Positions 4,782 through 56,816 of a stretch of 64,000 nt of DNA are shown one piece after another. Position 1 is the stretch's first letter, and the number at the start of each line of letters is the position of its first letter. The stretch comes from Microgenomates group bacterium (GTDB taxonomy: Bacteria > Patescibacteriota > Microgenomatia > UBA12405). Below the pieces are notes generated by a model. The model ran no database searches, was not told the origin of the DNA, and saw only the letters and a program-made list of their open reading frames with translations. The stretch spans positions 278,994-342,993 of the forward strand of contig JBAQNJ010000001.1 of the NCBI GenBank assembly GCA_049303675.1, given 5' to 3'. The position numbers and the translations under genes were made by a program.

Positions 4782-5541
4782 CTGGATGGAAAAAAGCCCT
4801 CTTTAGATCCACTTGTCCATTCTTAATTTTATTTTTCATGTACAATTTTTGCGGCCAGTAGACCAGCCAATTTATAAAGTTTAAAAATATTGTCTCATTT
4901 CTTTGTTTTGACTTTTTACTTTTTACTTTTGACTTTCGACTATATGGCGTCGCCACATATCTCCCAATCCACTTATTTTCCCTTATAAATTTCTTATATA
5001 TGCCACTTCTGTCTAGTACCGGTACCATCAATATTGAATCCATGGCATTTTTCAAGTTTTGCCTTTTTTGAGGTATTTCCAGCACGTCCTCTTCTAGCCA
5101 CAAATTAAAACAGAATTCATCACCCTTTTCGTTTTTGCCATACTTTCTATGGGGGATACCTCTTAATACCACAAATATTCTCAGCCACAATCTTGTCACC
5201 CATAGGCGGTTTTGTCTGGTGACAATCATCAAATCTATGTCGTCATCGACTTTTGGGTAGCCCGCCGCTACCGAGCCAGTTATGCCAACCAACAAAATAT
5301 TAGGGAAAAACTTTTCAATTAGTTTTACCACCTCCTTTGTTTTTACTATTTTATTATTCTTATTTTTAATTTTTAATTCGTAATTATTAATTCGTAATTT
5401 TTCCAATGCTCTATTTATGAGTTTTTCATTAAATACTGCCCCAGAAATCAAACGTTCCTTTATCACCCGTTTACTATATTCCACCCCATATTTTCTACCG
5501 TATTCTCTAGTTTTATTAATTGCCTCGTTTAATTGGTCCAC
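4765..5541 (-). CDS. Nucleotidyltransferase-domain protein (Pol-beta superfamily)
   Basis: LLVGITGSVAAGYPKVDDDIDLMIV = GS...DxD nucleotidyltransferase signature; contains Lys-rich segment encoded by heptamer repeat. Confidence 0.55.
   Translation of the reverse strand: MDQLNEAINKTREYGRKYGVEYSKRVIKERLISGAVFNEKLINRALEKLRINNYELKIKNKNNKIVKTKEVVKLIEKFFPNILLVGITGSVAAGYPKVDDDIDLMIVTRQNRLWVTRLWLRIFVVLRGIPHRKYGKNEKGDEFCFNLWLEEDVLEIPQKRQNLKNAMDSILMVPVLDRSGIYKKFIRENKWIGRYVATPYSRKSKVKSKKSKQRNETIFLNFINWLVYWPQKLYMKNKIKNGQVDLKRAFFHPDDKIG
4906..4940. repeat. Heptanucleotide tract (gacttttt/acttttt)
   Basis: ttttgactttttactttttacttttgactttcgac; on minus strand encodes KSKVKSKKSK in nucleotidyltransferase gene. 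Confidence 0.75.
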
Positions 5542-10769: not shown

Positions 10770-11690
10770 ATGCGTCATTGGCTGATTTTTATTATTATTT
10801 CCTGTTCTTGTATTTTTTTGTCTTATTCTTACTTCTTAAATCATAAATCATATATCATATCCCCAACTGTTTATCAAAATTATATCCCGACAATCACTCC
10901 AACCCCCACACTGTCACCAACTGTGACAGTGGGCTTCGTCGGCGACCTTGGACTAGGCCGACACATCACCAGTACTGCTCGCAATAAAAATGATTTCAGT
11001 TGGAGCTTCACTCAAATTAATCCATGGCTATTGCAAAACGATTTTACCCTCGCCAATTTAGAGTCACCCATTATAACCAATTGTCCCTTAGGAAAAACCG
11101 GTACTTTTACTTTTTGTGGCGACCCAAAATTCATTCCCTACCTTACTCCATTTGTTATGAACCTCAACAATAACCATATTCTCAACTATGGTCTCGACGG
11201 TCTAAACCAGACAAAAAAATATTTACCCGACACCAGTTTTTACGACAATTTTTATATTAAAAAAGTGAATGGAATTTCTTTTGGATTTCTAGGATATGAT
11301 TTTATTACCTATCCACTCCAAGACAAACAGAAAATACTCAACGCTATAAGGTTGGCTAAACCACAGGTTGATTTTCTAGTGATATCCATTCACTGGGGTA
11401 ATGAGTATCTACCCCAACCAGAAAAATGGCGAGTAGAGTTGGCTCATCAAATGATCGATGCTGGGGCCGATTTTATTCATGGCCATCATCCTCATGTTTG
11501 GCAGGGGGTCGAGACTTACAAGGATAAATTAATTTTTTATTCTTTTGGCAACTTTATTTTTGACCAGAGTTGGTCCTACGAGACATCCCATTCCCAAATC
11601 GCCCGAGTTACTTTTGGCGACAATAAAATAAATTATGAATTATTTCCCATTGAGATCCGTTTTAACTCCCAACCCCGTCTAATACCTTGA
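10770..11690 (+). CDS. CapA/PgsA-family metallophosphatase (poly-gamma-glutamate capsule synthesis-like)
   Basis: ISIHWGNEY...HGHHPHVWQG...SFGNFIFDQ motifs of CapA (PGA_cap). Confidence 0.75.
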   Translation: MRHWLIFIIISCSCIFLSYSYFLNHKSYIISPTVYQNYIPTITPTPTLSPTVTVGFVGDLGLGRHITSTARNKNDFSWSFTQINPWLLQNDFTLANLESPIITNCPLGKTGTFTFCGDPKFIPYLTPFVMNLNNNHILNYGLDGLNQTKKYLPDTSFYDNFYIKKVNGISFGFLGYDFITYPLQDKQKILNAIRLAKPQVDFLVISIHWGNEYLPQPEKWRVELAHQMIDAGADFIHGHHPHVWQGVETYKDKLIFYSFGNFIFDQSWSYETSHSQIARVTFGDNKINYELFPIEIRFNSQPRLIP

Positions 11691-13265: not shown

Positions 13266-13296
13266 TGTAGACTGTTAACTGTTCACTGATAACTAT
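13266..13296. repeat. 14-mer repeat family copy (intergenic rpe-like/gap)
   Basis: tgtagactgttaactgttcactgataactat. Confidence 0.7.
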
Positions 13297-14327
13297 TTAC
13301 AAATGTACATAGCCATCTCTATCAACCGACATGAATAGCCGTATTCGTTATCGTACCATGCTCCAATACACACCATATCATCGGCCACTACATTGGTCAT
13401 TCGAGCATCGATAATACATGATCCATTGTTACCAATAATATCCGATGACACCAATGGTTCATAAGATACTTTCACTTTTCCCACTAGTTCTGGGCTCACG
13501 CTAGCCTCTTCGAAAATAGCGTTTACTTCTTCTATGGTTGTTTTTCGGACCATCTTAAAAGTTAAATCGGAATACGAGCCACAGACTACAGGAACTCGGA
13601 TGGCCGTCCCTGCAAACCTCCCTTTTGCCTCAGGATAAGCCGCAATTACCGCCTCCGCCGCCCCAGTGGCTGTCGGGACTATATTTATTGCCGCCGCTCT
13701 TGCTCGTCTTGGGTCTTTTCCCCCACCATCAACTATATTTTGATTGGTAGTATAGGCATGAATTGTTGTCAAAGATCCTTCTTGGAACCCAATTTTTTCA
13801 TCAATCAGTTTGACAATTGGTGCCACACAATTTGTGGTACATGAACCATTGGAAATTAATTCTTCCCCTTTATATCTATTTTCATTTACTCCCAGTATGA
13901 ATACTGGAATTTTTGGATCCTTAGCCGGCGCCGATAATACCACTTTCTTTGCTCCACCTCTAATATGCCCCAACGCTTTTGTGTCATTAAATGCCCCAGT
14001 GCACTCCAACACTACTTCAGCCCCATAATCACCCCAACGAATTTTACTCGGATCCGTTTCACCGAGTAAGGGAATTACTGTTTCCCCGACTGCCAATCTT
14101 CCCAATTCTCCGCCTTTTTGTGGATCAGCTGTTTCTACCTTCATCGGCATCCTGCCATATACCGAGTCATATTTAAATTGCATAGCATAGGCCTCCGCCG
14201 GCAAGTCTCCTTTAGTATTTATCGCCACTACTTCCACATTATATTTTTCCAGTAGTATCGCCCGTAGCACCACCGTTCCAATTCTCCCAAAACCATTAAT
14301 TCCAATTTTTATTTTTTTATTTTCCAT
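13293..14327 (-). CDS. gap: Glyceraldehyde-3-phosphate dehydrogenase
   Basis: IGINGFGRIGT...SNGSCTTNC active-site motif. Confidence 0.9.
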   Translation of the reverse strand: MENKKIKIGINGFGRIGTVVLRAILLEKYNVEVVAINTKGDLPAEAYAMQFKYDSVYGRMPMKVETADPQKGGELGRLAVGETVIPLLGETDPSKIRWGDYGAEVVLECTGAFNDTKALGHIRGGAKKVVLSAPAKDPKIPVFILGVNENRYKGEELISNGSCTTNCVAPIVKLIDEKIGFQEGSLTTIHAYTTNQNIVDGGGKDPRRARAAAINIVPTATGAAEAVIAAYPEAKGRFAGTAIRVPVVCGSYSDLTFKMVRKTTIEEVNAIFEEASVSPELVGKVKVSYEPLVSSDIIGNNGSCIIDARMTNVVADDMVCIGAWYDNEYGYSCRLIEMAMYICK

Positions 14328-14375: not shown

Positions 14376-15434
14376 TTATTCCCATGCTACTAATTTTCCT
14401 TTTGTCAACAGTTCCAACATCATTCCACCACCAGAAGCTATCAAATCAATTTTATCCTTCATTCCCAAATTCTCAATCGATGCAGTTGTATCACCACCAG
14501 CAATTATCTTATAAGCATTTGATTCAGCCACAGCGACAGCTATCTCTTCTGTCCCTTTTTTACAATCTTCTTTTTCGAACCATCCCATCGCTCCCGCCCA
14601 GACTATCATCTTTGATTCACTAATTACTTTTTTAAATTCTTCAATATCCTCCTCGCTCAAATCAAACGTGTCCTCCCTCAACTTAGCAATTTTTATTTTT
14701 CCACTATTCACTGTTAACTGTTCACTATTAACTAAAAGCGGTAATTTACCGCCAATAAGTATGTTATCAGCGATCTTGAGGATTTCAGCAATGTGGTCCA
14801 GTTTGTCTTCCTTTGCTCCCCCTAAAATAATGGTCAAGGGACTAGTCTTTTCCTCCACCACTTTCATTATTTTATTTACCTCTTCAATAAACGCCAGTCC
14901 ATAAAATCCAGGCATCTCTTTATACAACATGTTAGACCTTTCTCTTCGGTGGGACACCGCTAGGGCATCATTCACAAAAAATTGACAAATTTCCACCAAG
15001 TTTTTCAAAAAATCACTGTCATTATTTTCTTCACCCTTCCAAAAACGTAAATTTTCCAAAAACACAATCTGATTTTTAGATATCGCCATATCTAATTTTT
15101 CAAAATTACCCACATCTTCCACAAAAATACTCTCAATCATATTTTCGCCATTTGGTTCAAGTAGCGTCATCAACTCCAAGTAGACAGGTCTAAGTGATAA
15201 CTTTGGATCATAGCCATCAGGCTTGCCCGCCGTAGCCTTGGCGTAGGTGGGTCTACCTAGTTTTCCCACAATCACTATCTTACATTTTTTATCCATCAGT
15301 AACCTTATCGTTGGAATTGACTTAGACAACCTAGCATTGTCCCTCACCATCCCCTCCATCATAGGCACGTCCAAGTCTAGTTTTAGAATTACTTTTGTTT
15401 CTGGTAATATTTCCTCAACCGATCTCAGTTTCAT
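14376..15434 (-). CDS. pgk: Phosphoglycerate kinase
   Basis: KVILKLDLDVPM, GGGMMLELL; likely start MKLRSVEEIL (ORF track extends to 15530); contains in-frame 14-mer repeat insertion (VNSEQLTVNSG). Confidence 0.85.
   Translation of the reverse strand: MKLRSVEEILPETKVILKLDLDVPMMEGMVRDNARLSKSIPTIRLLMDKKCKIVIVGKLGRPTYAKATAGKPDGYDPKLSLRPVYLELMTLLEPNGENMIESIFVEDVGNFEKLDMAISKNQIVFLENLRFWKGEENNDSDFLKNLVEICQFFVNDALAVSHRRERSNMLYKEMPGFYGLAFIEEVNKIMKVVEEKTSPLTIILGGAKEDKLDHIAEILKIADNILIGGKLPLLVNSEQLTVNSGKIKIAKLREDTFDLSEEDIEEFKKVISESKMIVWAGAMGWFEKEDCKKGTEEIAVAVAESNAYKIIAGGDTTASIENLGMKDKIDLIASGGGMMLELLTKGKLVAWE
14702..14734. repeat. 14-mer repeat family copy, in-frame in pgk
   Basis: cactattcactgttaactgttcactattaact (minus strand encodes VNSEQLTVNSG). 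Confidence 0.75.
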
Positions 15435-29525: not shown

Positions 29526-31226
29526 ATGATAAACTTACTAGTGATCCAAAAAATGCTTTTCTTTTTTACTTTTTACTTTTTACTTTTTACTTTCGTCCCC
29601 CATGTTTTTGCCGATATAAATGATGATATAGCGCAGCTTAGTAAACAAATTTCCGCCCTAGATGCTGCCATCGCCCCCCTCAAAAAAGAATCTACCGGAC
29701 TCTCCGCCAAAATTTCCTCAGCCAAAGCCACCATTCTCAAAACCGAAAAACAAATTACCGACCTTGGTGTCCGCCTGATTGACAAGGAGGCGGATCTCGA
29801 AGTCCAAAAAACTCTTCTCTCTTCTCGAGTTCGTCGTTATTACATCAACACCAAAAAATACAATCCACTCCTCATCTTTTTTGCCTCTACCGAGAGTACT
29901 TCTCTCCTCCGCCAATATTCTTGGTATCAATCAATTATTAGTACTGATCGCAATACCATTGTTGGCTATGTCAACGATATTAATTCTCTTAATCAAAATA
30001 AAATAAAATTAGAAGCTGAAAAAGTCAAATTGGCCGTCATCAAAAAAAATCTTGAATCCCGTTTTGGCTTTTTAGCCGGTGAAATCCAAAAAGCCGAGGC
30101 CTACAAAAATGAACTTAGCAAAAAACAGCAAGCCTTAATCGCCGAGAAAACCGCTATGTTCAACACCAGCGTTGGTGACGTCTCCTCATCCGACGATCCC
30201 GCCTCTAGATCCGATTATAATCCGGGGTTTTCCCCTGCTTTTGCTGTCTTTTCTTTTGGCGCCCCCCATCGTAAAGGTATGTCCCAATACGGTGCTTTTG
30301 GTCGATCCAAGGCAGGGCAATCCGCCGAAACCATTCTCAAGGCCTACTATGGCGATATTCGTCTCGAGAAAATGGACTCACCAGCTTCAATCCGCACCAC
30401 AGTTGGTATCCTTCCCTTCGAAGATAATTACTTAGTCGGTATCGCCGAAATGCCCGCTAGTTGGGGAGATTTAGGTGGCTATGAAGCACTCAAAGCTCAG
30501 GCCATTGCCGCTCGCACTTATGCCATCAATTCCACCAACAATTTATCCGGCACTATTTGTGTCACCGAGGCTTGTCAGGTCTACAGTCGTTCCCGACTCA
30601 ATTCACCGGGGCGCTGGCGTCAGGCAGTTATTGATACTCGGGGTATAGTTATCAAAAGCAACAAAACTGGCCGAGTTTTCTCCACCATGTATGCTTCGAC
30701 TTCTGGTGGGGCCATCACTTCATATTCCAGTTCCGATCACAGCACTCCTATGGTTTGGGATACCACTTGTGGCAGCCAGTCCTGCTGGCCATCTGGAGCC
30801 TACGAAAAATCAGCAGGTTCTTCGTGGTATTACAAGGGTTGGTACAAGACTCGTAGCAATGTCTCCGCCGGTCGATCTCATCCATGGTTAAATCAAGAGG
30901 AATTTTCCGACATTATCAATGCTATTATTTATTTTTCCAAAAACAAAGACTCTTCTCATTTATCTCAAATCCAAAATTGTCTCGGTTCCTGTGATTCAAA
31001 TGCGTGGTCTAGGGACGAACTTCGTAGGCAAGTAGGCAACGCCGTAAGTTCAGTCAACTCTGTCTCTGTTGACTATTCTACCGCTGGCTATACCCAAACC
31101 GTTCGAGTCAGTACCGACAAAGGTGATTTTAGCTTTAATGGCACAGACTTTAAAGAAATATTTACCCTCCGTGCCCCAGGTGCCCTGACTGCTAAATCCA
31201 GTCTCTTCAATATTGAGAAAAAATAA
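29526..31226 (+). CDS. SpoIID/LytB-domain cell-wall protein with N-terminal coiled coil
   Basis: APHRKGMSQYGAFGRSKAGQSAETILKAYYGD = SpoIID/LytB core; N-terminal signal/TM encoded by (acttttt)4 heptamer tract. Confidence 0.7.
   Translation: MINLLVIQKMLFFFTFYFLLFTFVPHVFADINDDIAQLSKQISALDAAIAPLKKESTGLSAKISSAKATILKTEKQITDLGVRLIDKEADLEVQKTLLSSRVRRYYINTKKYNPLLIFFASTESTSLLRQYSWYQSIISTDRNTIVGYVNDINSLNQNKIKLEAEKVKLAVIKKNLESRFGFLAGEIQKAEAYKNELSKKQQALIAEKTAMFNTSVGDVSSSDDPASRSDYNPGFSPAFAVFSFGAPHRKGMSQYGAFGRSKAGQSAETILKAYYGDIRLEKMDSPASIRTTVGILPFEDNYLVGIAEMPASWGDLGGYEALKAQAIAARTYAINSTNNLSGTICVTEACQVYSRSRLNSPGRWRQAVIDTRGIVIKSNKTGRVFSTMYASTSGGAITSYSSSDHSTPMVWDTTCGSQSCWPSGAYEKSAGSSWYYKGWYKTRSNVSAGRSHPWLNQEEFSDIINAIIYFSKNKDSSHLSQIQNCLGSCDSNAWSRDELRRQVGNAVSSVNSVSVDYSTAGYTQTVRVSTDKGDFSFNGTDFKEIFTLRAPGALTAKSSLFNIEKK
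29561..29597. repeat. Heptanucleotide tract (ACTTTTT)x4 + actttcgtc
   Basis: cttttttactttttactttttactttttactttcgtc inside 5' end of SpoIID gene. Confidence 0.8.
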
Positions 31227-31632: not shown

Positions 31633-31691
31633 AATCTGTACTCATCTATGCTTTTTCTAACCAGTGGGGGACCAACATTTCCCGTCGCACT

Positions 31692-32171
31692 TTGCTGGAA
31701 TTAGAGAAAAAATTGCCAAAAAACAATTTGCTAAATTATCAAATTGTTTATTTTCATCCCAAAACTTTTTTCAATAAATATATAAAAAGTTTTTGCACCC
31801 CTTCCCCCTTGTTAAAGGGGGATCGAGGGGGATTAATCATTGGTCTTGGCGATTTCTTTGGTGACATTACCAAAATCCGTCTCGAAACTATTACCCATAA
31901 TCAATATGCTCAAAACTCAATTTATCCATTTTCACCCATCAATTTAGATATTTCGCTGCCACCACTGGAAGATATTGACGAAAGAATCTTTACCGTTAGT
32001 GAACACATGGGCAAATACAATTGCAACTGGATTGTCTATTCTACCGAATTATATATCCGTCAACATGCCCCAGCCACAAAGCAATTATTTTTTCACCTGC
32101 CCCGTTCCCAAAATGCCACCATTTTAGCCTCTCAAATATACAATTTGCTCAATAATAATCAAATAATTTAG
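31692..32171 (+). CDS. Hypothetical protein (contains repeat copy in-frame; start uncertain)
   Basis: 159 aa ORF; hairpin repeat at 31804-31834 encodes SPLLKGDRGGL. Confidence 0.25.
   Translation: MLELEKKLPKNNLLNYQIVYFHPKTFFNKYIKSFCTPSPLLKGDRGGLIIGLGDFFGDITKIRLETITHNQYAQNSIYPFSPINLDISLPPLEDIDERIFTVSEHMGKYNCNWIVYSTELYIRQHAPATKQLFFHLPRSQNATILASQIYNLLNNNQII
31804..31834. repeat. Hairpin repeat family copy 1 (short form)
   Basis: cccccttgttaaagggggatcgagggggatt. Confidence 0.8.
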
Positions 32172-32175
32172 TGTT

Positions 32176-32218
32176 TTCCCCCTTTTCAAGGGGGAAGCGG
32201 CGTAGCCGAGGGGGTTTT
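32176..32218. repeat. Hairpin repeat family copy 2 (long form)
   Basis: ttcccccttttcaagggggaagcggcgtagccgagggggtttt, followed by ttataat 5 nt before ATG 32235. Confidence 0.8.
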
Positions 32219-32234
32219 GATGTTATAATTAACC

Positions 32235-32942
32235 ATGCCTCGAATCAAAGATGTTGATAATGTCGCTCCTGACGATTTAATTACTTCCCCAAAAACTAAT
32301 TTAACTATAAATACAAATCCAATTATAAAATCACCCAACAAGTTGGTCGATACAGAGACTTTAAACGACAAGGTTTACTCAATTTTTGGTCACACCAAGT
32401 CCTCATTTTCCTCTGCCCTAGTTTTCCCTCATGTCTTTAGTTTTGCCGAGCAGGACGACGATGAAAAAATTCTCGTCGCTATGCGTCCCCATTGGTTCAC
32501 CAATGTTTCTTGGATTTTCACCTCTATTTTTTTATTTCTCCTTCCTAGCCTAATCCATTTTGTTCCCCTTATCAACACCCTCCCGTGGAACTACCAGTTT
32601 GTCATTACCCTCTCTTGGTATCTAATCGCCATTGCCTACACTTTCGAGAAATTTATGGGCTGGTATTTCGATGTCTATATTATTACTGACCGTCGGGTCA
32701 TTGACATCGACTTTATCAATCTCCTTACCAAAAAATACGCCGAAGCAGATATATCCAAGATACAAGATGTCTCCTCGAAGGTTTCTGGTGTTAGCCAGAC
32801 ATTCTTCAATTATGGCTCAGTTCTCATCCAGACCGCCTCCGAAGTCAATGAATTGCACTTTGACAAAGTTGCCAATCCCGAAAAAATTGTCAAAATATTA
32901 CAGGAATTAGGCGAGTTAGAAGAATCCAAACACCATGAATAA
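32235..32942 (+). CDS. Membrane protein with bacterial PH (bPH_2/DUF304-like) domain
   Basis: Two TM helices then YFDVYIITDRRVIDIDF...GSVLIQTAS pattern. Confidence 0.5.
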   Translation: MPRIKDVDNVAPDDLITSPKTNLTINTNPIIKSPNKLVDTETLNDKVYSIFGHTKSSFSSALVFPHVFSFAEQDDDEKILVAMRPHWFTNVSWIFTSIFLFLLPSLIHFVPLINTLPWNYQFVITLSWYLIAIAYTFEKFMGWYFDVYIITDRRVIDIDFINLLTKKYAEADISKIQDVSSKVSGVSQTFFNYGSVLIQTASEVNELHFDKVANPEKIVKILQELGELEESKHHE

Positions 32943-33150
32943 TCTCAATCTCTATTTTTTACTGGCCCAAAAATTTTCTTTTGTTCTCGGTTCTATTATT
33001 TATCTTGTTTTTGCCCTAATTGTGGTGAAGCAAACTACTATGATGAGTAAAAACGTTATCGACAAATTCAATCCTGTTCTGATCTCCATTGCCTATCTCC
33101 ACCTCGCCTTTTCCATATTTCTCGTCTTCCTTACTTTAGTAATACTCTAA
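32935..33150 (+). CDS. Small membrane protein
   Basis: 71 aa, two hydrophobic segments, overlaps upstream gene stop. Confidence 0.3.
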   Translation: MNNLNLYFLLAQKFSFVLGSIIYLVFALIVVKQTTMMSKNVIDKFNPVLISIAYLHLAFSIFLVFLTLVIL

Positions 33151-33189
33151 CAAAGATTATCCCCCTCTTTCGTCAATATAGTTTGTACT

Positions 33190-33234
33190 TCTCCCTTTTT
33201 CAAGGGGAGATGCGGCGAAGCCGAGAGGGGTTTT
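33190..33234. repeat. Hairpin repeat family copy 3 (long form)
   Basis: tctccctttttcaaggggagatgcggcgaagccgagaggggtttt then tagtat 8 nt before ATG 33250. Confidence 0.8.
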
Positions 33235-33249
33235 GTAGTATCATTAATC

Positions 33250-35052
33250 ATGCACTTTATTTGTCGATCTTTCCTCGGTCAAGCACAGCCCAATTCTTGG
33301 TCTCAGTATTGGGAGAACGAACCAGAGGATCAGGCTCTCGCTGCCAATCGTGGCCATCTTTTTGCCCTGCTCAATCTTGTCGTTGATCAAAATATCCCCA
33401 CTAGCGATATCGGTCATCGGCTTATCAATGAACTCAATCAACAATATTTTTCTTCATCCCTTGATCCAATTCCCGTTTCACTGACGCAGGCTATCCAGAC
33501 AGTTGTCAATCAACCAGCCTACAACTTACTCGACATTTCTCTGACTATCGCCATTATTCACCAGTCCCAGCTCTATCTGGCTATGTACAACTCCGGTTAT
33601 GTTTTTCTCGTTCGCCAGCATCAGTTCTCTCAGCTTCTTAGCGGCACCACCTCGAAGGTCAATCTCGTCTCTGGCCTGATTGCCCCCGATGACATTATCT
33701 TTATTTGCACTCAAAATTTTTATGACAATGCTACCCTAAATGGTATCAAGAGTTACCTGTCATTAGGCAAAACAGAAGACATTGAGGAGAGCATTATGGC
33801 CGACATTTACACTTTTACCGAGCAGGCCACCCTCGCTTCCCTCCTCATCGGAATTCACCCCGATGTCGATACCCCTTCCCCTCTTCCTGACAGCCCCGAG
33901 CCTAGTTCTCCCCCAGTTTCTGAGGTTATTTCTCCTCCCGATGTCTACATTTCCCACCTCGACTCTACCGCCATCAAAAATCGTCGTTATTTCAACATCA
34001 TTATTGCCATCATTTTGATTTTAGCCCTGTCTGTCAGTGTTTTCTTTGGCAATCAGCGTAATCAAAAAAATAATTTACAAACCAAATATCAGACCCTCAA
34101 ATCAGCCTATCAGGCCAAAATGAGTAGTGCTCTAGCCACCAAAAATATCAATCTCGAAGAGGCCCAGAAGATTGCTGCCGAGGCCAAAAGTATCGCCCTC
34201 GAATTGCAGTCTCTCAAGATAAATTCAGCCGAATCATCCCAGTTATTAGCTGATGCCCTCAATATACTGTCCCAAACTGGTTCTGCCGACAGTTACTCAC
34301 CCCAAGACTACTACGACACCACCGATCTCAACTCTGCTGCGAATTATTCTCATCTTATTTCTGCCAAAAACTTTTTATATCTCCTCGATCAGACTTCAGG
34401 TCGTCTCGACCGCCTCGATCTAGCCGCCAAAAGCAAACAAAAAATTATCCAAAATGATCAACTAAAAAATGCCACCGATATCGCCGAAAATAATGGTCAA
34501 CTCTACCTCCTCATCGACAAAAAAATCTATCAAGTTAGTGGCACTTCCCTTAATTCAGTTATTGATATTCCCACCGACATTCCCGACTTCACCTCCGGCA
34601 AAATCCACTTTTGGAACAGTAGTCTCTATCTTCTTGGCACCAACATTTGGAAATTCACCCCCTCAGGCACCTCCTTTTCTCAGGCCCAAGTCTGGCTCAA
34701 GGATGGCAACAATTTACCACCCACTAGTTCCTCATTGGCCATCAATGGCCAAGTTTGGGTCTTAGCCAAGTCAGGGGATCTTTCCTCCTACACTCGGGGT
34801 ACCCGCGATGCCACCCCGCCCCATATTGCCACCAATTTATCAGCCGCCGATCACTTAGTTGTTTCTCTTGACTCAGAAATTATTTCCTTTGTCGATGGCA
34901 GTTCCGTTGTTTATATTTATCACAAATCTACCGCATCCGCCTCCAAATACAATTTTGGCAATCGTCAGATTCTTAGTACCGCTCTCGATTCTACTAACAA
35001 TCGTCTTTTAGTTCTCTGTGCCGACAAAAAAATCTACCAAATTAAATTATAG
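33250..35052 (+). CDS. Large hypothetical protein: cytoplasmic N-domain, single TM, Ser/Pro-rich linker, beta-rich C-domain
   Basis: 600 aa; TM RRYFNIIIAIILILALSVSVFFG; SPLPDSPEPSSPPVSEVISPP linker. Confidence 0.45.
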   Translation: MHFICRSFLGQAQPNSWSQYWENEPEDQALAANRGHLFALLNLVVDQNIPTSDIGHRLINELNQQYFSSSLDPIPVSLTQAIQTVVNQPAYNLLDISLTIAIIHQSQLYLAMYNSGYVFLVRQHQFSQLLSGTTSKVNLVSGLIAPDDIIFICTQNFYDNATLNGIKSYLSLGKTEDIEESIMADIYTFTEQATLASLLIGIHPDVDTPSPLPDSPEPSSPPVSEVISPPDVYISHLDSTAIKNRRYFNIIIAIILILALSVSVFFGNQRNQKNNLQTKYQTLKSAYQAKMSSALATKNINLEEAQKIAAEAKSIALELQSLKINSAESSQLLADALNILSQTGSADSYSPQDYYDTTDLNSAANYSHLISAKNFLYLLDQTSGRLDRLDLAAKSKQKIIQNDQLKNATDIAENNGQLYLLIDKKIYQVSGTSLNSVIDIPTDIPDFTSGKIHFWNSSLYLLGTNIWKFTPSGTSFSQAQVWLKDGNNLPPTSSSLAINGQVWVLAKSGDLSSYTRGTRDATPPHIATNLSAADHLVVSLDSEIISFVDGSSVVYIYHKSTASASKYNFGNRQILSTALDSTNNRLLVLCADKKIYQIKL

Positions 35053-35080
35053 TAGTTTTTTTGTACAACTTTGATATAAT

Positions 35081-35575
35081 TTGATTATGCCAGTTGATAA
35101 AACCCATCGAGAAATATTAGACCATGCCATCAACATTGCCTATCAAAACGCCACCAAATTCACTGCTCGCCAGCCAAATAGTGACTTCGCTACCACCTCT
35201 GCAGAAATAGATAGTTCTCGGGGTAAAGCCCATTTGTCAATTGGTGTCACTCGAACACAGCAAGGGCTAGATACCGAAGTCAGTCTTCAGCCAGCAGGTA
35301 GTGGTAAAGGCAATGACTGGAGCTATCGACTTGTATCCCAAACCGTCTGGCCAGATATCTACGGTCAACTAGTTGGAACTATGGACCATTACCCAGAAAC
35401 ACAAGGCATGACTGCCTCAGAAGCATTGGAAGTTTTACAGAAGACCTCACCCATAGAAATATCTTTTCCAAGGCGAGAACAACATTCATCTGAGGAAATC
35501 AGCTTTTTTCTACTGAGGGGAGATGGCAGAAGTGTGATTGACGATCTAGCTCGAATGGTCCGACCCCGTCGATAA
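35081..35575 (+). CDS. Hypothetical protein
   Basis: 164 aa ORF. Confidence 0.35.
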   Translation: MIMPVDKTHREILDHAINIAYQNATKFTARQPNSDFATTSAEIDSSRGKAHLSIGVTRTQQGLDTEVSLQPAGSGKGNDWSYRLVSQTVWPDIYGQLVGTMDHYPETQGMTASEALEVLQKTSPIEISFPRREQHSSEEISFFLLRGDGRSVIDDLARMVRPRR

Positions 35576-35577
35576 AA

Positions 35578-36006
35578 TTATCGTTTTTTTCTATCCAATA
35601 TTACGTCAATATATCCCGTTTTCACCCCTTCTGCTTGAGGTCTGCCCACGCCCATCATCAAAAAATACATTTTTTCTTCGCTTGCCGGCATGTCTTTTAT
35701 CCAAGCATCAGTTTTAGACATCGGTTCGATTATTTGCAAGTGGCCCACACACCTACTATCAGGATTTTCTCCTCTAGGTGTCAAATAAGTTATATTTTTT
35801 AGTGCTCGAAGTTGTTCTAGCGTCAAGCCTTCCTCTTCCCCTAACATAGTTTCAAAATTTTTTTGAGTATGTTCGGCAATTTCTTTATGAAAATCACTTG
35901 CCCTAGGTATTAGTATGAGTGCAAAAATATCCTTATTGACTGCATCCATCATTTGGGCTGAAGCTTTCAATTTCTTATAATACTCTCTAAATTTCTCGTC
36001 ATCCAT
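35578..36006 (-). CDS. Hypothetical protein
   Basis: 142 aa ORF. Confidence 0.35.
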   Translation of the reverse strand: MDDEKFREYYKKLKASAQMMDAVNKDIFALILIPRASDFHKEIAEHTQKNFETMLGEEEGLTLEQLRALKNITYLTPRGENPDSRCVGHLQIIEPMSKTDAWIKDMPASEEKMYFLMMGVGRPQAEGVKTGYIDVILDRKKR

Positions 36007-36047
36007 ATCATTATTATATCAATAAAGCCCATAATATACAATGTTTT

Positions 36048-36089
36048 TCTCCCTTGTCATAGGGAGAAGCGGCTGTGCCGAGAGGGATT
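36048..36089. repeat. Hairpin repeat family copy 4 (long form)
   Basis: tctcccttgtcatagggagaagcggctgtgccgagagggatt. Confidence 0.8.
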
Positions 36090-36155
36090 GAAATATGAGA
36101 TAATCACTTAGTTTGTTTTATTCATAAATCATATTTCTTATTTCATACACCAACT

Positions 36156-46417: not shown

Positions 46418-46455
46418 TTTCCCCTCTTTGCTCAAAGAGGGGCTAGGGGTGATTT
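46418..46455. repeat. Hairpin repeat family copy 5 (short form)
   Basis: tttcccctctttgctcaaagaggggctaggggtgattt. Confidence 0.7.
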
Positions 46456-48436: not shown

Positions 48437-50217
48437 TGAATAATAATCTATATAAAAATAGTACTTTCCCCCTTTTTCAAGGGGGGATTAAGGGGGGTTT
48501 TGTATTAAAAACTTTTTTTTACTTTTTACTTTTTACTTTTGTTTTTATTTTAATTTTTACTCTCCCTCTTATTTTCGGTTTTGGCAAAACCGGCAAAAAC
48601 ACTCTTGTTTTAGGCAAAGACTATTCCTTACTCTCCAAATCCCAAATAATTTCTCGCTTATCAGTCGATTTTCCTCTTCCTCCCAGCCTGAATATTCAGA
48701 CCTCAAACCGCAAATTTACTCTCAATTTAGCCGATATCTCCGCCCAATACGACTATCCCTCAATCGCATCCAATCTACTATTCCGTCGACTTCATAGTGG
48801 AGTTTTACCTTATTTTAAGGCATTTTTTCAGCCAAAAAACTTTAGCCTTAGTCTCGATTACAGCTCCGATTCACTCGATAAACAAATTGCCAATATCTCC
48901 CAGCAGGTCGATCATCCCTTTGTTCCCTCCCAATTTAGTCTCGATGAGAAATCCAAAGAAATCATCCTCAAAAACGGTGAACGGGGGCAAAGAGTCAATT
49001 CTGAAGAATTGAAAAACCGTCTCGTCTCTGCTCTTCGTTATTATGAGGCATCTACCCCTATCGACCTTCCCCTCGACCCTATTGGTGAGTTGCCCACTAC
49101 TGATCAAATTAGTAGTGCCACCGCTGTCGCTCAGTCCCTTATCGGCAAGAAGCTCGAATTTTCCGCCCCCGACGAGGTTGTCACCCTCGACGACAAGACC
49201 CTTATTTCTTGGGTCGACTTTGGGACCATTTGTCGCCGCTCCACAGTTGATGATTATGTCGCTGGACTGAAGTCTAGTCTGAAAAAGGATCCTGTCGAAG
49301 CCGTCTTCAAATTTGAAAATGGTCAAGTCCTCGAATTTCAACCATCTAAAAATGGTTATCTATTAGATGACTCCAATTTAAGCCAACAAATTTGTTCAAA
49401 AATAGTTGAACTATCCCAATCCTCGGACAAAATAATTAAGGATAAATTCCCAGTTATCACCCTCGAAACCAAGACTCAAAACTCTGATGTCAACAATTTA
49501 GGCATCAAAGAATTAATTGGCAGTGGCACCTCTACCTTCCGTCACAGTAGTACTATTCGCAATATCAATGTCGAGCGCGGCGCCCAAATAGTCAATCGCA
49601 TTTTAGTCGCCCCAGGCGAAAAGTTTTCCTTTGTCAAAGCTCTTGGCGATGTCACCATCGAAAATGGTTTCAAAATGGCTTATGTCATTCGGGCCGGCAA
49701 GACGGAATTAGACGTTGGTGGTGGTATCTGTCAGGTCTCCACCACTTTTTTCCGCGCCCTTCTCAATTCTGGGCTCGATATAATTGACAGACGCAACCAC
49801 GCCTATCGAGTCCAATACTATGAAGAAGACATGCCCCCAGGTTATGACGCCACTGTTTTTATCCCCAGTCCTGATTTATCTTTTGTCAACGACACTGGCC
49901 ATCATATCCTTATTCAAAGTAAATATGATGGTAAAAATAAACGGCTTACCTACGATCTTTATGGTACCTCCGATGGTCGATCTGTCGATATTAGCAACTA
50001 TCGCCAATGGGGAGCTGCTCCTGCTCCTCCGGCGGTCTATATTGACGATCCTACCTTACCGGCGGGCAAAGTCGTTCAGGACGAGCACGCTATTCCAGGA
50101 CTGAAGACATCTTTTGACTGGAAAGTGACCCGAGCCGGAGAGATAATCCATCAGAAAACCTTTACCAGCAATTTCGTCCCTTGGGCCGCCGTTTTCCGTC
50201 GCGGACCGCAAATTTAA
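48436..50217 (+). CDS. VanW-family protein with N-terminal TM
   Basis: GGGICQVSTTFFRALLNSGLDIIDRRNHAYRVQYY...GYDATVF VanW core; N-terminus carries hairpin repeat copy 6 and heptamer tract in-frame. Confidence 0.7.
   Translation: MNNNLYKNSTFPLFQGGIKGGFVLKTFFYFLLFTFVFILIFTLPLIFGFGKTGKNTLVLGKDYSLLSKSQIISRLSVDFPLPPSLNIQTSNRKFTLNLADISAQYDYPSIASNLLFRRLHSGVLPYFKAFFQPKNFSLSLDYSSDSLDKQIANISQQVDHPFVPSQFSLDEKSKEIILKNGERGQRVNSEELKNRLVSALRYYEASTPIDLPLDPIGELPTTDQISSATAVAQSLIGKKLEFSAPDEVVTLDDKTLISWVDFGTICRRSTVDDYVAGLKSSLKKDPVEAVFKFENGQVLEFQPSKNGYLLDDSNLSQQICSKIVELSQSSDKIIKDKFPVITLETKTQNSDVNNLGIKELIGSGTSTFRHSSTIRNINVERGAQIVNRILVAPGEKFSFVKALGDVTIENGFKMAYVIRAGKTELDVGGGICQVSTTFFRALLNSGLDIIDRRNHAYRVQYYEEDMPPGYDATVFIPSPDLSFVNDTGHHILIQSKYDGKNKRLTYDLYGTSDGRSVDISNYRQWGAAPAPPAVYIDDPTLPAGKVVQDEHAIPGLKTSFDWKVTRAGEIIHQKTFTSNFVPWAAVFRRGPQI
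48465..48501. repeat. Hairpin repeat family copy 6 (short form), in-frame in VanW N-terminus
   Basis: tttccccctttttcaaggggggattaaggggggtttt encodes FPLFQGGIKGGF. Confidence 0.8.
48511..48541. repeat. Heptanucleotide tract actttttttt(actttttx2)acttttg
   Basis: encodes FFYFLLFTF of VanW signal/TM. Confidence 0.75.
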
Positions 50218-51780: not shown

Positions 51781-52884
51781 CTAAAAGTTTAATCGTGGAT
51801 CACGGTCCAGAGTCTCGGGATCCGACCATTCTTTTCGCTTCGCCAATTCCCAGCCCACTCTTCCAATCATGGCCGCATTATCGGTATTTAGCCATATTTT
51901 CGCTGGCATATAAATTAGCAATTTCTTTTTTCTGGCTAGGGCTCTCAGTTTTTTTCGAAGCATCATATTGGCCAGTACCCCTCCCGAGGCCATTATAGTT
52001 TTTGGCTCATATTTATCAATCGCCAAATCAAATTTTCTAATCAAAGTATTGAATACCGACTCTTGAAATGTTGCCGCCAGACTAGCCAAATTTTTATTTT
52101 TTTCCTCTATTGACCAGTCTTTTATTTTATAATAAAAACTAGTTTTCAGTCCCGAAAAGCTATAGTCCAACACTTTTTTATCGGCGAGCGGTTTGGGTAA
52201 TTCAAACAAATTATTATTGGCGCCAGCTTGCATCGCCAGTCGCTCTATCACCGGCCCCCCAGGGTATCCCAAACCCAGTAATTTTGCCGCCTTATCCAAC
52301 GCTTCTCCCGCCGCATCATCCAACGTTTCCCCCACTACAGTATATTTTTGTAAGGGCGTACCCTTGTGGTCGCCCTTTTCCAAAAGTACAATCTTCGTAT
52401 GTCCTCCACTTACCGTCAGGCAAATAGCTGGCAGCTCTATCTCTCTCTCTGGCAATCCTTTACTATTTTTGACGAGGTTAGACAATATATGTCCCTCCAC
52501 ATGATTCACCGCCACCAATTTTTTATTATATTTTATCGCCAATTCACAGGCAGTTTTCACCCCTACTCCTAGAGCAATCGCCAGCCCCGGCCCTTTCGTC
52601 ACTGCAATTACATCAACAGACTTCATGTAATATTCCAATGTCTTTCTCTCCCTTGTCAAAGGGAGATGCCCCGAAGGGGAGAGGGATTGAGAACGTTTCA
52701 ATGCCGTCATTATCACCGGCAAAATTCTCGCTTGATGTGCTCTTTTCGCAATATCCGGTACCACCCCACCCCAATCTTTATGCAAATCAGTTTGCGAGGA
52801 AATTACATTACTTATCACTCGATCATTTTCCAGCACTGCCGCACAGGTATCATCACAGCTGGTTTCAATCGCCAATATTTTCAT
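51781..52884 (-). CDS. tsaD: tRNA N6-adenosine threonylcarbamoyltransferase TsaD
   Basis: MKILAIETSCDDTCAAVLE...VTKGPGLAIALGVGV...VNHVEGHIL; carries in-frame hairpin repeat copy 7 (LPLTRERK). Confidence 0.9.
   Translation of the reverse strand: MKILAIETSCDDTCAAVLENDRVISNVISSQTDLHKDWGGVVPDIAKRAHQARILPVIMTALKRSQSLSPSGHLPLTRERKTLEYYMKSVDVIAVTKGPGLAIALGVGVKTACELAIKYNKKLVAVNHVEGHILSNLVKNSKGLPEREIELPAICLTVSGGHTKIVLLEKGDHKGTPLQKYTVVGETLDDAAGEALDKAAKLLGLGYPGGPVIERLAMQAGANNNLFELPKPLADKKVLDYSFSGLKTSFYYKIKDWSIEEKNKNLASLAATFQESVFNTLIRKFDLAIDKYEPKTIMASGGVLANMMLRKKLRALARKKKLLIYMPAKIWLNTDNAAMIGRVGWELAKRKEWSDPETLDRDPRLNF
52645..52688. repeat. Hairpin repeat family copy 7 (long form, inner hairpin CCCCGAAGGGG), in-frame in tsaD
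   Basis: tctctcccttgtcaaagggagatgccccgaaggggagagggatt. Confidence 0.8.
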
Positions 52885-54159: not shown

Positions 54160-54194
54160 TCCCCCTTGTTAAAGGGGGATTTAGGTGGATTAGG
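54160..54194. repeat. Hairpin repeat family copy 8 (short form)
   Basis: tcccccttgttaaagggggatttaggtggattagg between divergent PHP and lemA. Confidence 0.75.
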
Positions 54195-55615: not shown

Positions 55616-55727
55616 CGCTAGTGTCATTCCCGCGCCGTGTCAGTCTGTAGCTTTAGCGTAGGATGATAGGTGGGAATCTATTAAATTTATTTGTCCTATT
55701 CATAAATCTTAAATCGTATATCTTAAA

Positions 55728-56816
55728 TCAAAAATTTATCTCCCGTGTCGTCTCATCCACATAGCTAAAATTAATCGGTATATAGTTAGTTATTTTTTTT
55801 AATTTATTTAGGTATTCTTCACCCATATTTTCCGGCCACTCAATACAGGCAACTAGCTCTGAGCTTGTCGAAGGGAATTGTTCCAAAAATTTTATTTCCT
55901 CAAATTCATATTTATTTCCCAATCTATACAAATCAAAATGTAAAAATTTCTTGCACTGATAACTGTTCACTGATAACTGTTCACTGATTAAATATTCATT
56001 ATAAATTACAAACGTCGGGCTAGTTATTTTTTCCTTTACCCCGAGTAGTTGTCCTATCTTTCGGGAAAATACAGTCTTTCCACAACCTAGGTCTCCGCTC
56101 AATCCAAACACTAGAGGTTTTCTCTCCCTTGTTAAAGGGAGAAGCGGCGTAGCCGAGAGGGATTTGTTCAACAAAAATTCAGCAATTTTCTCCGTTTCCT
56201 TTTCCGATTTAGAAATTAGTGTTTGGGATTTCCCCACTATCAAGTCTCCCCGTCTGAGGATTTTTATCTCCGGTTCAGTGGCGTCAATTACTGTCGATGG
56301 TTTGTTCCGTGGTAATTTACCACTGTCCACCATCATATCGATCATCATCAATTTTTTCTGGGACAGAGTTTTTACAAAGCTTGCCAGTGAATAGTGGGGA
56401 GTCCGTCCCGACAGATTCGCTGACGTCGCCGTCACTGGCCCTCCCACCGCCTTCACCAGATCCATTATCCATTGGTTATCCGGTATTCGTATTCCCAATG
56501 TCCCATTTTCCGCCTCTATACCCTTGGCCACCTTATGTTTGCCCTCCGACACAATCGTAAAAGGTCCGGGTAGCAAGTTTGCATAAATATTTTCTGCATT
56601 TTCACTCAGTTTTACAAAATCTTGTGCCATTTTTTTATCTGCTACAGCTATCGATATCGCCTTCCCCGTCCATCTGTTTTTAAATGCGAGAAGTTTATCT
56701 GTTGCGCTCTGGCTTCTCGGATCTACCGCCAAAATGTACACCGTATCACTCGGGAATATTACTAGCCCACCATCTTTTATTATTCTGGCCGCCTTTTCAA
56801 TATCCTCGACTTTCAT
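55728..56816 (-). CDS. Fused TsaC/Sua5 (YrdC domain) and TsaE (P-loop) protein
   Basis: N: GGLVIFPSDTVYILAVDP...; C: SEKETEKIAEFLL...GDLGCGKTVFSRKIG...SPTFVIYNEY...HFDLYRL; carries hairpin copy 9 and 14-mer repeat in-frame in TsaE part. Confidence 0.75.
   Translation of the reverse strand: MKVEDIEKAARIIKDGGLVIFPSDTVYILAVDPRSQSATDKLLAFKNRWTGKAISIAVADKKMAQDFVKLSENAENIYANLLPGPFTIVSEGKHKVAKGIEAENGTLGIRIPDNQWIMDLVKAVGGPVTATSANLSGRTPHYSLASFVKTLSQKKLMMIDMMVDSGKLPRNKPSTVIDATEPEIKILRRGDLIVGKSQTLISKSEKETEKIAEFLLNKSLSATPLLPLTRERKPLVFGLSGDLGCGKTVFSRKIGQLLGVKEKITSPTFVIYNEYLISEQLSVNSYQCKKFLHFDLYRLGNKYEFEEIKFLEQFPSTSSELVACIEWPENMGEEYLNKLKKITNYIPINFSYVDETTREINF
55954..55989. repeat. 14-mer tandem repeat (aactgttcactgat)x2.5
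   Basis: cactgataactgttcactgataactgttcactgatt encodes ISEQLSVNSYQ. Confidence 0.8.
56121..56165. repeat. Hairpin repeat family copy 9 (long form), in-frame in TsaE domain
   Basis: tctctcccttgttaaagggagaagcggcgtagccgagagggattt encodes (minus) SLSATPLLPLTRERK. Confidence 0.8.

Follow-up and report, generated by a model that had tools for sequence, protein, structure and literature searches.

The 64-kb window of this Microgenomates genome, meaning the whole stretch of 64,000 nucleotides analysed here, contains a short structured repeat, and several of its copies sit directly in front of −10 boxes that almost touch a start codon. Is the repeat a working part of these promoters, a combined terminator and insulator between leaderless genes as the preliminary description proposed, or did it arrive beside promoters that already existed? 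The window holds nine copies, far above chance, all on the plus strand, solo and co-oriented. They are given below with their neighbouring features (positions within the window; the triplex motif is described further on).

31803–31833, plus strand: triplex-motif copy 1, TCCCCCTT-GTTA-AAGGGGGA-TCG-AGGGGGAT, an in-frame insertion (..SPLLKGDRGG..) in an ORF of a 167-aa family
32174–32218, plus strand: triplex-motif copy 2, Y arm CCCCCTT, loop, R arm AAGGGGGAA, linker a GC mini-hairpin (GCGGC-GTA-GCCG), mirror arm AGGGGGTTTT; between the stop codon at 32169–32171 and the −10 box
32221–32229, plus strand: extended −10 element TGT-TATAAT, 5 nt before ATG 32235
32235–32942, plus strand: gene for a PH-domain (bPH_2) membrane protein, predicted leaderless
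32935–33150, plus strand: DUF5657 gene, whose start overlaps the stop of the upstream gene (ATGAATAA) and which is therefore coupled rather than leaderless
33190–33232, plus strand: triplex-motif copy 3, TCTCCCTTT-TTC-AAGGGGAGA-[TGCGGCGAAGCCG]-AGAGGGGTT
33239–33244, plus strand: −10 box TATCAT, 5 nt before ATG 33250
33250–35052, plus strand: gene for a 600-aa conserved protein (MHFxCRSF..), whose mRNA is predicted to have no leader or one of ≤4 nt
36047–36089, plus strand: triplex-motif copy 4, between divergently transcribed genes; the ancestral smpB promoter, TGA-GATAAT, lies 9 nt downstream
46421–46454, plus strand: triplex-motif copy of another subfamily, CCCCTCTTT-GCTC-AAAGAGGGG-CTA-GGGGTGATT, upstream of a SAM-I/IV riboswitch and metK
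48466–48499, plus strand: triplex-motif copy in the annotated N-terminus of a VanW protein (..FPLFQGGIKGGF..)
52647–52687, plus strand: triplex-motif copy in tsaD (51781–52884, minus strand), antisense, with the in-frame reading SLSPSGHLPLTRERK
54160–54190, plus strand: triplex-motif copy separating two divergent genes; TGT-TATTAT-N5-ATG 54209 (LemA) lies 6 nt downstream
56123–56163, plus strand: triplex-motif copy in a TsaC/Sua5-TsaE fusion gene (55728–56816, minus strand), with the in-frame reading SLSATPLLPLTRERK just ahead of the TsaE P-loop

The −10 box described at copy 2 is borne out by the sequence. The copy is followed by gaTGTTATAATtaaccATG, in which TATAAT (32224–32229) lies 5 nt before ATG 32235 and is extended by a TG at 32221–32222. 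Copy 3 is followed by ttttgTAGTATCATtaatcATG, and here the earlier claim of a −10 box close to ATG 33250 stands with an adjustment: TAGTAT (33236–33241) is 8 nt from the ATG, and it is the overlapping TATCAT (33239–33244), 5 nt away, that corresponds to the hexamer conserved in orthologues. The gene order needs more revision. Copy 1 does not lie upstream of a gene starting at 31692 but inside an ORF whose homology reaches upstream to ~31638, and the genes at 31692, 32235 and 33250 are not three consecutive plus-strand genes, as the DUF5657 gene (32935–33150) intervenes.

The leaderless geometry is a property of the genome and not of the repeat. Among the 81 ORFs in the window, 22 have a near-consensus −10 box exactly 5–6 nt before the start, and 28 have one at a gap of 4–8 nt, compared with 3.8% of other ATGs (p~1e-19). 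Shine-Dalgarno (SD)-like motifs are depleted upstream of starts (5/81 vs a background of 11%); the 16S rRNA retains its anti-SD tail, and its 3′ end reads CACCTCCTTT. By start class, 43 of the ORFs are leaderless-type and 17 coupled. TGn extended −10 boxes are enriched (14/43 vs 6%), and −35 matches at the leaderless-type promoters are poor. Upstream stop codons were also seen to double as the TGn of extended −10 boxes. The predicted leaderless starts at 32235 and 33250, which we deduce from the −10/ATG spacing, are thus supported in silico by the −10 peak, the SD depletion and the conserved spacing in orthologues. The genome as a whole appears to run mostly on −10-only promoters combined with leaderless or stop/start-coupled translation, which bears on gene calling and on gene expression in minimal cells.

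Orthologous loci show these promoters without the repeat. The placement of the repeat beside a −10/ATG unit, as first described, holds for copies 2 and 3, but at the copy-2 promoter the orthologues L202, L203, L204, L206 and L207 carry TGn-TAnAAT-N5-ATG with no repeat. Intergenic regions at empty orthologous sites measure only 4–25 nt (11 nt in L203 and L207). Copy 3 is missing in the orthologues L202, L203, L205 and L206, the residues inserted by copy 1 are missing in L202, L203 and L205, and copy 4 forms the right-hand boundary of a ~1.1-kb insertion (35053–36140) that relatives do not have. In this Microgenomates genome, promoters are as a rule built with the −10 box 5–6 nt before the ATG, and this design predates the repeat insertions. 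Relatives carry insertions acquired independently in the same intergenic slots (L207), which could reflect target preference or function rather than mere tolerance.

What kind of element is the repeat? From 5′ to 3′, each copy (31–45 nt in the window) consists of a pyrimidine (Y) arm, a loop, a purine (R) arm, a linker and a second purine arm. In all nine window copies, the Y arm faces a complementary R arm in a stem of 7–9 bp across a short loop of 3–6 nt. For the motif as a whole, the loop has 3–8 nt, mostly GTCA or GTTA, and the linker before the third arm is 2–4 nt long or a variable GC hairpin. The minus-strand loop TTGACA was considered as a −35 element and rejected, its spacing to the nearest −10 being inconsistent (9–36 nt). 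The third arm is the mirror image of the first purine arm, with the code G to G and A to A or T, giving G.G-C, A.A-T or T.A-T triads. Seven window copies were detected automatically with ≤1 mismatch in the mirror arm; copies 2 and 4 were checked by eye. At the DUF559 loci described below, 36 distinct asymmetric purine arms each have a perfect mirror arm, perfect mirror instances number 110 against 9 direct-repeat controls, and the third-arm base opposite A is A 149 times and T 146 times. This anatomy places the repeat among the class II (purine-motif) intrastrand-triplex motifs of the BoxC/PIT/TMECO kind.

Three-strand folding of the window subfamily is predicted from this covariation and from experiments on its E. 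coli relative, TMECO, whose single-stranded DNA folds into a stable triplex in vitro by CD/NMR, although DMS footprinting detected no stable triplex in vivo (PMC4666352). The fold would probably form in single-stranded DNA, because purine-motif triplexes do not form in RNA (PMC4666352). Within the class, the window copies belong to a different sequence subfamily (TCYCCCTT-GTYA-AAGGGRGA...GRGGGAT) and do not match the TMECO consensus CCCTCNCCC-N3-6-GGGNGAGGG-N3-GGGNGAGGG, which is matched by some DUF559-flanking motifs (L184, L187) and in E. coli. One triplex-motif sequence of 33 nt reads GTCTCCCTTGTCAAAGGGAGATTTAGAGGGATT. A sequence-based literature search for the repeat returned unrelated primer matches only. 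CRISPR repeats, DGR, attC sites and ribozymes were excluded by spacing, copy context and absence of matches.

The compensatory changes in hairpin P1, together with a variable linker hairpin that keeps its pairing across families, could also indicate a structured RNA, either an sRNA or a cis-regulatory motif. The third arm, however, covaries as a mirror (G.G, A.A/T.A), as expected for a DNA purine-motif triplex, which has no RNA counterpart, and not for RNA pairing. Copies lie in both orientations with respect to genes, and RNA-fold z-scores, mostly −0.8 to −2.5, are not compelling for an RNA element. Rfam gave no family at the copies, neither in a gathering-threshold scan of the window nor in a permissive scan of 31750–33300, where matches were sub-threshold noise only. 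We regard an RNA element as very improbable.

In the proposed dual role as terminator and insulator, the element would stop upstream transcription and isolate the next leaderless promoter. Copies 2, 3 and 5 do follow plus-strand stop codons and end in GGGG-TTTT(G), and homopolymeric arms allow arm 1 to pair with arm 3 into a hairpin with a U-run (copy at 48466). Nevertheless, the G-rich stem plus T-run does not correspond to the definition of a terminator: the terminator scan made no call at repeat copies, those at 32174–32218 and 33190–33232 included, and fold z-scores stand out little in most cases. The T-run comes behind the third arm, 15–25 nt beyond the hairpin, and six of the nine copies have none. 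Where it occurs, after copies 2, 3 and 5, it probably represents, at least in part, the A to T version of the mirror arm. At copy 3, TTTTGTAG-TATCAT is identical to the orthologues’ stop-codon/−10 junction and is therefore probably not a terminator U-tract. Other copies occupy divergent intergenic regions or the inside of genes on either coding strand, and orthologous gene pairs, only 4–25 nt apart, do without such an element. The E. coli BoxC/PIT/TMECO relatives showed neither terminator nor promoter activity in experiments (PMC4666352). We consider the terminator and insulator role improbable.

The lack of promoter activity in these relatives equally weighs against a promoter-proximal activator of −10-only promoters, whether it worked as an UP-like element or in place of a −35, bound a transcription factor or eased melting as non-B DNA. 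Such a role would fit the several copies that end 0–9 nt before a −10 box, in the window and at other Patescibacteria loci, as well as the same-slot insertions of L207 and the opposite-strand loop, which reads TTGACA, TTAACA or TTGAAA. But the loop lies ~26–29 nt from the −10 box, the wrong distance for a −35 element, and the orthologues have the same promoters without the repeat. At other Patescibacteria loci the association is weak, with 8 of 75 low-GC copies located ≤90 nt from a leaderless-type start, and the 20–30% of copies inside open reading frames also argue against activation. An activator is no more probable to us than a terminator.

The distribution of the repeat points instead to a selfish origin. 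Related motifs were found at ≥118 loci where ~1 was expected. The repeat is dispersed and mobile-like, with nine same-strand copies in the 64-kb window, empty sites in orthologues and several insertions that keep the reading frame of coding genes. These last lie within TsaD, where the insert has 15 residues, the TsaC-TsaE fusion and two other ORFs. At the first hotspot in TsaD, the insert is present in P0001 and missing in P0005, P0006, P0010, P0012 and P0022; such in-frame insertions into conserved genes, missing in orthologues, are typical of RPE-like invaders of coding sequence. We therefore favour, with a probability of about 0.7, the reading that a selfish triplex repeat landed beside pre-existing leaderless promoters and is not a dedicated terminator or insulator. 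As these promoters would require no sequence ahead of TGn-TATAAT and intergenic regions otherwise measure ~11–25 nt, few places would tolerate insertion, among them the gap from an upstream stop codon to the following −10 box. Those intergenic copies that survive would adjoin −10 boxes for this reason. No consistent target-site duplication was found at the flanks of copies 2, 3 and 5 or of DUF559 cassettes; duplicated host 3′ ends occur at L173, at E. coli ycjD and possibly at copy 3.

A possible source of mobility emerged from the related loci. Inverted pairs of triplex motifs flank genes for DUF559 proteins (PF04480, E 1e-26 to 1e-30), the recurrent flanked gene, whose fold is of the Vsr-like PD-(D/E)xK repair-nuclease type. 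This arrangement is new here and is seen across phyla. The DUF559 loci were searched for with three closer sequences as query, a nine-sequence alignment being too divergent. Flanking pairs occur at 62 of 80 DUF559-selected loci, a count that includes near-duplicates and so overstates independence. Motif density is 3.5/kb near DUF559 gene ends vs 0.16/kb further away, and orientation is strongly skewed, upstream copies being reverse (59:14) and downstream copies forward (46:6), with 0 in shuffles. E. coli ycjD is flanked likewise, with TMECO no. 9. This arrangement is missing or changed in ~38% of E. coli genomes, and the one variant examined is a larger rearrangement, not a clean empty site. 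In the 64-kb window, tblastn found no DUF559 gene. Among element-adjacent ORFs, no HUH Y1 (RAYT) transposase cluster was present.

DUF559 nucleases, with inverted copies of such motifs on either side of their genes, are candidates for mobilising or processing the repeat family. More broadly, we tentatively suggest, judging it rather less than an even chance, that DUF559 proteins (YcjD-like, Vsr-fold) are the missing partner enzymes of BoxC/PIT/intrastrand-triplex repeats. Jointly they would form cross-phylum selfish elements with ends recognised as folded Y-R-R′ triplexes in single-stranded DNA, and in CPR the repeats would have undergone solo, strand-biased spread into promoters and even essential genes. 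The flanking arrangement provides a concrete hypothesis on what a very widespread uncharacterised domain does and on where the repeat came from, and as E. coli K-12 has ycjD and 23 TMECO copies, it is directly testable.

The same observations could be read as host biology, with the motifs as host-maintained structural DNA signals, DUF559 as a host repair nuclease that processes triplexes, and the flanking as autoregulation rather than mobility. The Vsr-like repair-nuclease fold would suit this role, as would the preference of the motif for the C-rich strand, seen for 9/9 window copies and for 48/65 in strongly skewed loci, and the link of such motifs to local genome instability reported by Holder et al. 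(PMC4666352). We find it unlikely: a motif that varies in presence between orthologous sites and invades essential genes looks more like selfish DNA than like a maintained signal, and inverted pairs around a small nuclease gene, along with tandem gene-less pairs at L052 and L075, resemble IS/MITE or RAYT/REPIN systems. The MITE/IS resemblance lies in the inverted pairs at DUF559 genes; the window copies are 9/9 solo and co-oriented. Such copies are unexplained by a simple TIR-transposon model.

On the promoter side, the closest parallels are leaderless genes of Actinobacteria, Deinococcus and archaea (Zheng et al. 2011, PMC3160421; GeneMarkS-2, PMC6028130). Like these, the genes here have a −10-like TANNNT at a fixed short distance before the start and no SD. 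They differ in belonging to a Microgenomates-group CPR genome, in their TGn extended −10 boxes and in the stop codons that double as TGn; no report of such leaderless architecture in CPR was found in the literature searched.

The repeat itself most closely resembles BoxC/PIT/TMECO, with which it shares the order of Y arm, loop, R arm, short loop and mirror R arm, and the class II triple code C-G-G, T-A-A, T-A-T. Those repeats, too, are dispersed in multiple highly conserved copies, some of them in inverted pairs, and are associated with variable loci. Knowledge of BoxC/PIT triplex repeats goes back to the 1990s, but neither a function nor a mobilising activity has been assigned to them; the earlier intrastrand-triplex work is reportedly that of Hoyne and Maher in 2000 and 2002. 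TMECO was described as ‘always intergenic’ in E. coli, and its authors found no mobility genes nearby (PMC4666352). In contrast, the window copies represent another subfamily in a CPR (Microgenomates) host, often with a GC hairpin as linker; they occur in frame in coding genes, are strand-biased and belong to a family with a DUF559 link.

Small dispersed gene-adjacent repeats are also found in Neisseria. The Correia elements (CREE/NEMIS) have 26-bp TIRs and a TA duplication, promoter, terminator and RNase III sites are documented in them, and they can influence transcription, the role first proposed for the present repeat. None of these hallmarks was found for the window repeat. REP/REPIN with RAYT (TnpA_REP) offers a closer parallel, with short structured repeats, solo or in inverted doublets, that flank one small nuclease gene, and by analogy structure-based recognition of single-stranded DNA is plausible for the triplex repeat. 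Here, however, the partner is DUF559 (PD-(D/E)xK, Vsr-like) and not an HUH Y1 transposase, the repeat has a mirror third arm, and mobility is a hypothesis.

The coding insertions recall Rickettsia palindromic elements (RPE), which Ogata et al. are said to have described in 2000 as inserted in frame into protein-coding genes. Both are short in-frame repeats in conserved housekeeping genes, in several frames and on both strands, although the triplex motif measures 31–45 nt vs ~100–150 nt for RPE palindromes, and the host phylum differs. The presence of triplex repeats in essential tRNA-modification genes extends ‘selfish DNA in proteins’ beyond Rickettsia.

The hairpin repeat of this region proves to have a third arm. 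Each of its nine copies in the window consists of a pyrimidine arm, a short loop, a complementary purine arm, a linker (3–4 nt or a variable GC mini-hairpin) and a further purine-type arm. This third arm mirrors the second, repeating it neither directly nor in inverted form, as in AAGGGAGA/AGAGGGAT, AAGGGGAGA/AGAGGGGTT and AAAGAGGGG/GGGGTGATT. All nine copies of this triplex repeat lie in the same orientation:

Triplex copies and associated features in the window
31803-31833, +, triplex copy 1, within the 167-aa-family ORF
32174-32218, +, triplex copy 2, followed by gaTGTTATAATtaaccATG
32224-32229, +, -10 box TATAAT with TGn in front, 5 nt from ATG 32235
32935-33150, +, DUF5657 gene, overlapping the PH-domain gene at its stop codon
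33190-33232, +, triplex copy 3, followed by ttttgTAGTATCATtaatcATG
35081-35575, +, ORF with no assigned role, TGATATAAT-N6-ATG
35578-36006, -, ORF with no assigned role, TGATATAAT-N6-ATG
36047, +, triplex copy 4
46421, +, triplex copy
48466, +, triplex copy, in the annotated N-terminus of a VanW protein
52647, +, triplex copy, in tsaD, read antisense as SLSPSGHLPLTRERK
54160, +, triplex copy
56123, +, triplex copy, in a TsaC-TsaE fusion, read as SLSATPLLPLTRERK just before the P-loop

The preliminary description associated copies with three consecutive plus-strand genes at 31692, 32235 and 33250. The sequences 3' of copies 2 and 3 are as described there, with TATAAT 5 nt before ATG 32235, and TAGTAT 8 nt and TATCAT 5 nt from ATG 33250. 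Copy 1, however, lies inside the ORF at 31692, whose orthologue homology reaches to about 31638, and the DUF5657 gene separates the second gene from the third. The 167-aa-family ORF (31638-32171) carries copy 1 in frame, shows a weak Peptidase_C15-like match and has GTA in place of the ATG or GTG start codon of its relatives, so the gene may be in decay.

The spacing between -10 box and ATG is a feature of the whole genome and not repeat-specific. In 81 window ORFs, with the first ATG taken as start, strict -10 boxes (hexamers agreeing with TATAAT at five or more of six positions) show a sharp maximum close to the start, with 13 ORFs at a gap of 5 nt and 9 at 6 nt over a background of ~0.7% per offset. 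Such a box lies 4–8 nt before the start in 28/81 ORFs versus 3.8% for the remaining ATGs (p~1e-19). When four matching positions of six suffice, 43/81 ORFs count as leaderless-type, and a further 17/81 overlap a co-directional upstream ORF or start within 25 nt of one. Of the 43, 14 have an extended -10 with TGn (6% in the background; p~1e-7), and agreement with a -35 box is poor, mostly 2–3 of 6. SD-like tetramers precede 5/81 starts, below the 11% background, despite a 16S rRNA 3' end that is still CACCTCCTTT. The spacing thus supports putative leaderless starts at 32235 and 33250, as a property of the genome and not of the repeat.

Six relatives keep the gene order SpoIID, 167-aa protein, PH-domain protein, DUF5657, ~600-aa protein and SmpB. 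Upstream of the PH-domain gene they read stop|TACAATATCTC|ATG (L203), stop|TATAATCACTT|ATG (L207) and ..CTGTTAAAATACCTT|ATG (L202), and L204 and L206 have the same TGn-TATAAT-N5-ATG. In L203 and L207 (both 2989-3001) only 11 nt separate the two genes, made up of a -10 hexamer and 5 nt more, and the TGA stop of the upstream gene also serves as the TGn of the extended -10. Upstream of the 600-aa gene, relatives have ..TTTTGTAG|TATCAT(N6-9)ATG, and the identical string TTTTGTAGTATCAT stands directly 3' of copy 3 in the window. Because relatives keep the same promoter and start without the repeat, copies 2 and 3 are insertions, each of which separates a stop codon from a leaderless promoter that was already in place.

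The proposal that the repeat doubles as terminator and insulator is not supported. A terminator scan made no call at the triplex copies, a T-run follows only three of the nine, and copies also lie in divergent regions and within genes. The three T-runs fit the mirror arm, and that of copy 3 also matches the stop/-10 junction of its orthologues. Elsewhere, only 8/75 low-GC copies have a leaderless-type start within 90 nt downstream. The frequent contact of copies with -10 boxes in the window is best explained by survivorship: since promoters here depend on no sequence 5' of TGn-TATAAT, and hardly any other non-coding DNA exists, insertions would persist there. A target preference for stop/-10 junctions is a possible alternative, given independent insertions in L207 at the same slots as the window copies.

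Copy 4 forms the right border of a ~1.1-kb insertion (35053-36140), which holds the two ORFs listed above with no assigned role and is missing from five relatives; there, smpB follows the 600-aa gene by 13–21 nt. An AT-rich repeat family (..TTCATAAATCATAT..) occurs at 10806-10858, 36101-36153 and 55679-55731. Insertion of its copy at 36101 has separated an ancestral TGA-GATAAT-N9 promoter from the ATG of smpB, giving smpB a ~55-nt leader without SD, where relatives have GATAATTCCTTAGTT|ATG. Short intergenic repeats of ACTGTTAAC/ACTGATAAC/ACTGTTCAC units lie at 13271-13300, 14703-14732 and 55955-55998. Three collinear direct repeats (835-1590 versus 3080-3832; ~70% identity, offset 2242–2245 nt) are consistent with tandem paralogous genes.

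The repeat shows mobile-like behaviour, within genes too. Close TsaD orthologues vary from 340 to 424 aa, with repeat-type peptides (LNPPLTPPLRKGG, SLSASPRLPLTREKN, PPQPPFDKGG..) found in some and missing from others at two or three hot spots. A second insert class (..ISNFQFLN.., ..SIYNFKF..) occupies the same loop in P0002, P0008, P0019, P0021, P0040, P0053 and other TsaD proteins of alignment A1, which suggests that in this lineage coding sequence is invaded by a second, AT-rich repeat family as well. Separately, the repeat TTTTTACTTTTTACTTTTTACTTT (4906-4937, 29563-29594, 48516-48547) codes FYFLLFTF-type N-terminal hydrophobic segments of several secreted or membrane proteins (SpoIID-like, VanW).

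Searching species-representative genomes with the main-subfamily pattern yielded at least 118 loci versus ~1 by chance, in Shapirobacteria, Woesebacteria, Parcubacteria, SR1, Clostridia, Geomonas, Ignavibacteria, Bacteroidota, Chloroflexota and others. In other genomes 20–30% of copies lie in long open frames versus 65% of random positions. The pyrimidine-purine-purine (Y-R-R') strand of the repeat is the C-rich strand in 48/65 strongly skewed loci and for 9/9 window copies, and the 16S rRNA gene shares that strand. Across the window (1-64000), genes of either orientation show a strong excess of C on the + strand (GC skew about -0.2), an asymmetry that therefore looks replication-type.

Clustering the ORFs adjoining the 118 matches gave DUF559 (PF04480, E 1e-26 to 1e-30) as the sole recurrent small family across phyla; it has a Vsr-like PD-(D/E)xK fold, with PDB 3HRL as the only solved relative. 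Conversely, among 80 metagenomic loci (near-duplicates included) picked solely by DUF559 homology, 62 have one or more generic triplex motifs no further than 200 nt from the gene ends. Motif density is 3.5/kb near the ends, 0.16/kb further off and 0 in shuffled sequence, with a polarity of 59:14 for reverse-complement upstream and 46:6 for forward downstream. In E. coli K-12, a degenerate motif straddles the stop codon of the DUF559 gene ycjD, with TMECO no. 9 (Holder et al.) 168 nt downstream. A partial ycjD 3'-end duplicate (1351204-1351420) sits between the degenerate BoxC and TMECO no. 9, and the arrangement, upstream of fabI, is absent from ~38% of complete E. coli genomes. At the metagenomic locus L173, the host gene 3' end (..KKGLVKRTPRGRV.. 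coding) flanks motif-DUF559-motif on both sides, as if insertion had copied or replaced its target; the duplicated junction TTTTGTAGTATCAT 3' of copy 3 is similar. No DUF559 gene was found in the 64-kb window, and the literature searched contained no prior link of DUF559 or YcjD to these repeats. We propose DUF559 as a previously unreported candidate partner gene, the direction of causality being our interpretation.

The same 80 loci contain 36 different asymmetric purine arms, each with a perfect mirror arm (110 perfect mirror instances versus 9 in the direct-repeat control). Opposite G there is always G; opposite A, A occurs 149 times and T 146 times, which is exactly the base-facing rule of an antiparallel purine-motif triple helix. 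Prokaryotic genomes contain abundant, conserved class II intrastrand triplex motifs, the type case of which is TMECO, the BoxC/PIT element of E. coli (Holder et al. 2015, PMC4666352). The same authors associate TMECO with genome regions that vary locally, state that no transposase or integrase was ever found near the motifs, and report that PIT elements showed neither promoter nor terminator activity and that RNA does not form purine-motif triplexes (PMC4666352). The window element is a new subfamily of this known class: it shares the architecture of BoxC/PIT/TMECO but differs in sequence and, compared with the E. coli members, shows coding insertions and a strand bias.
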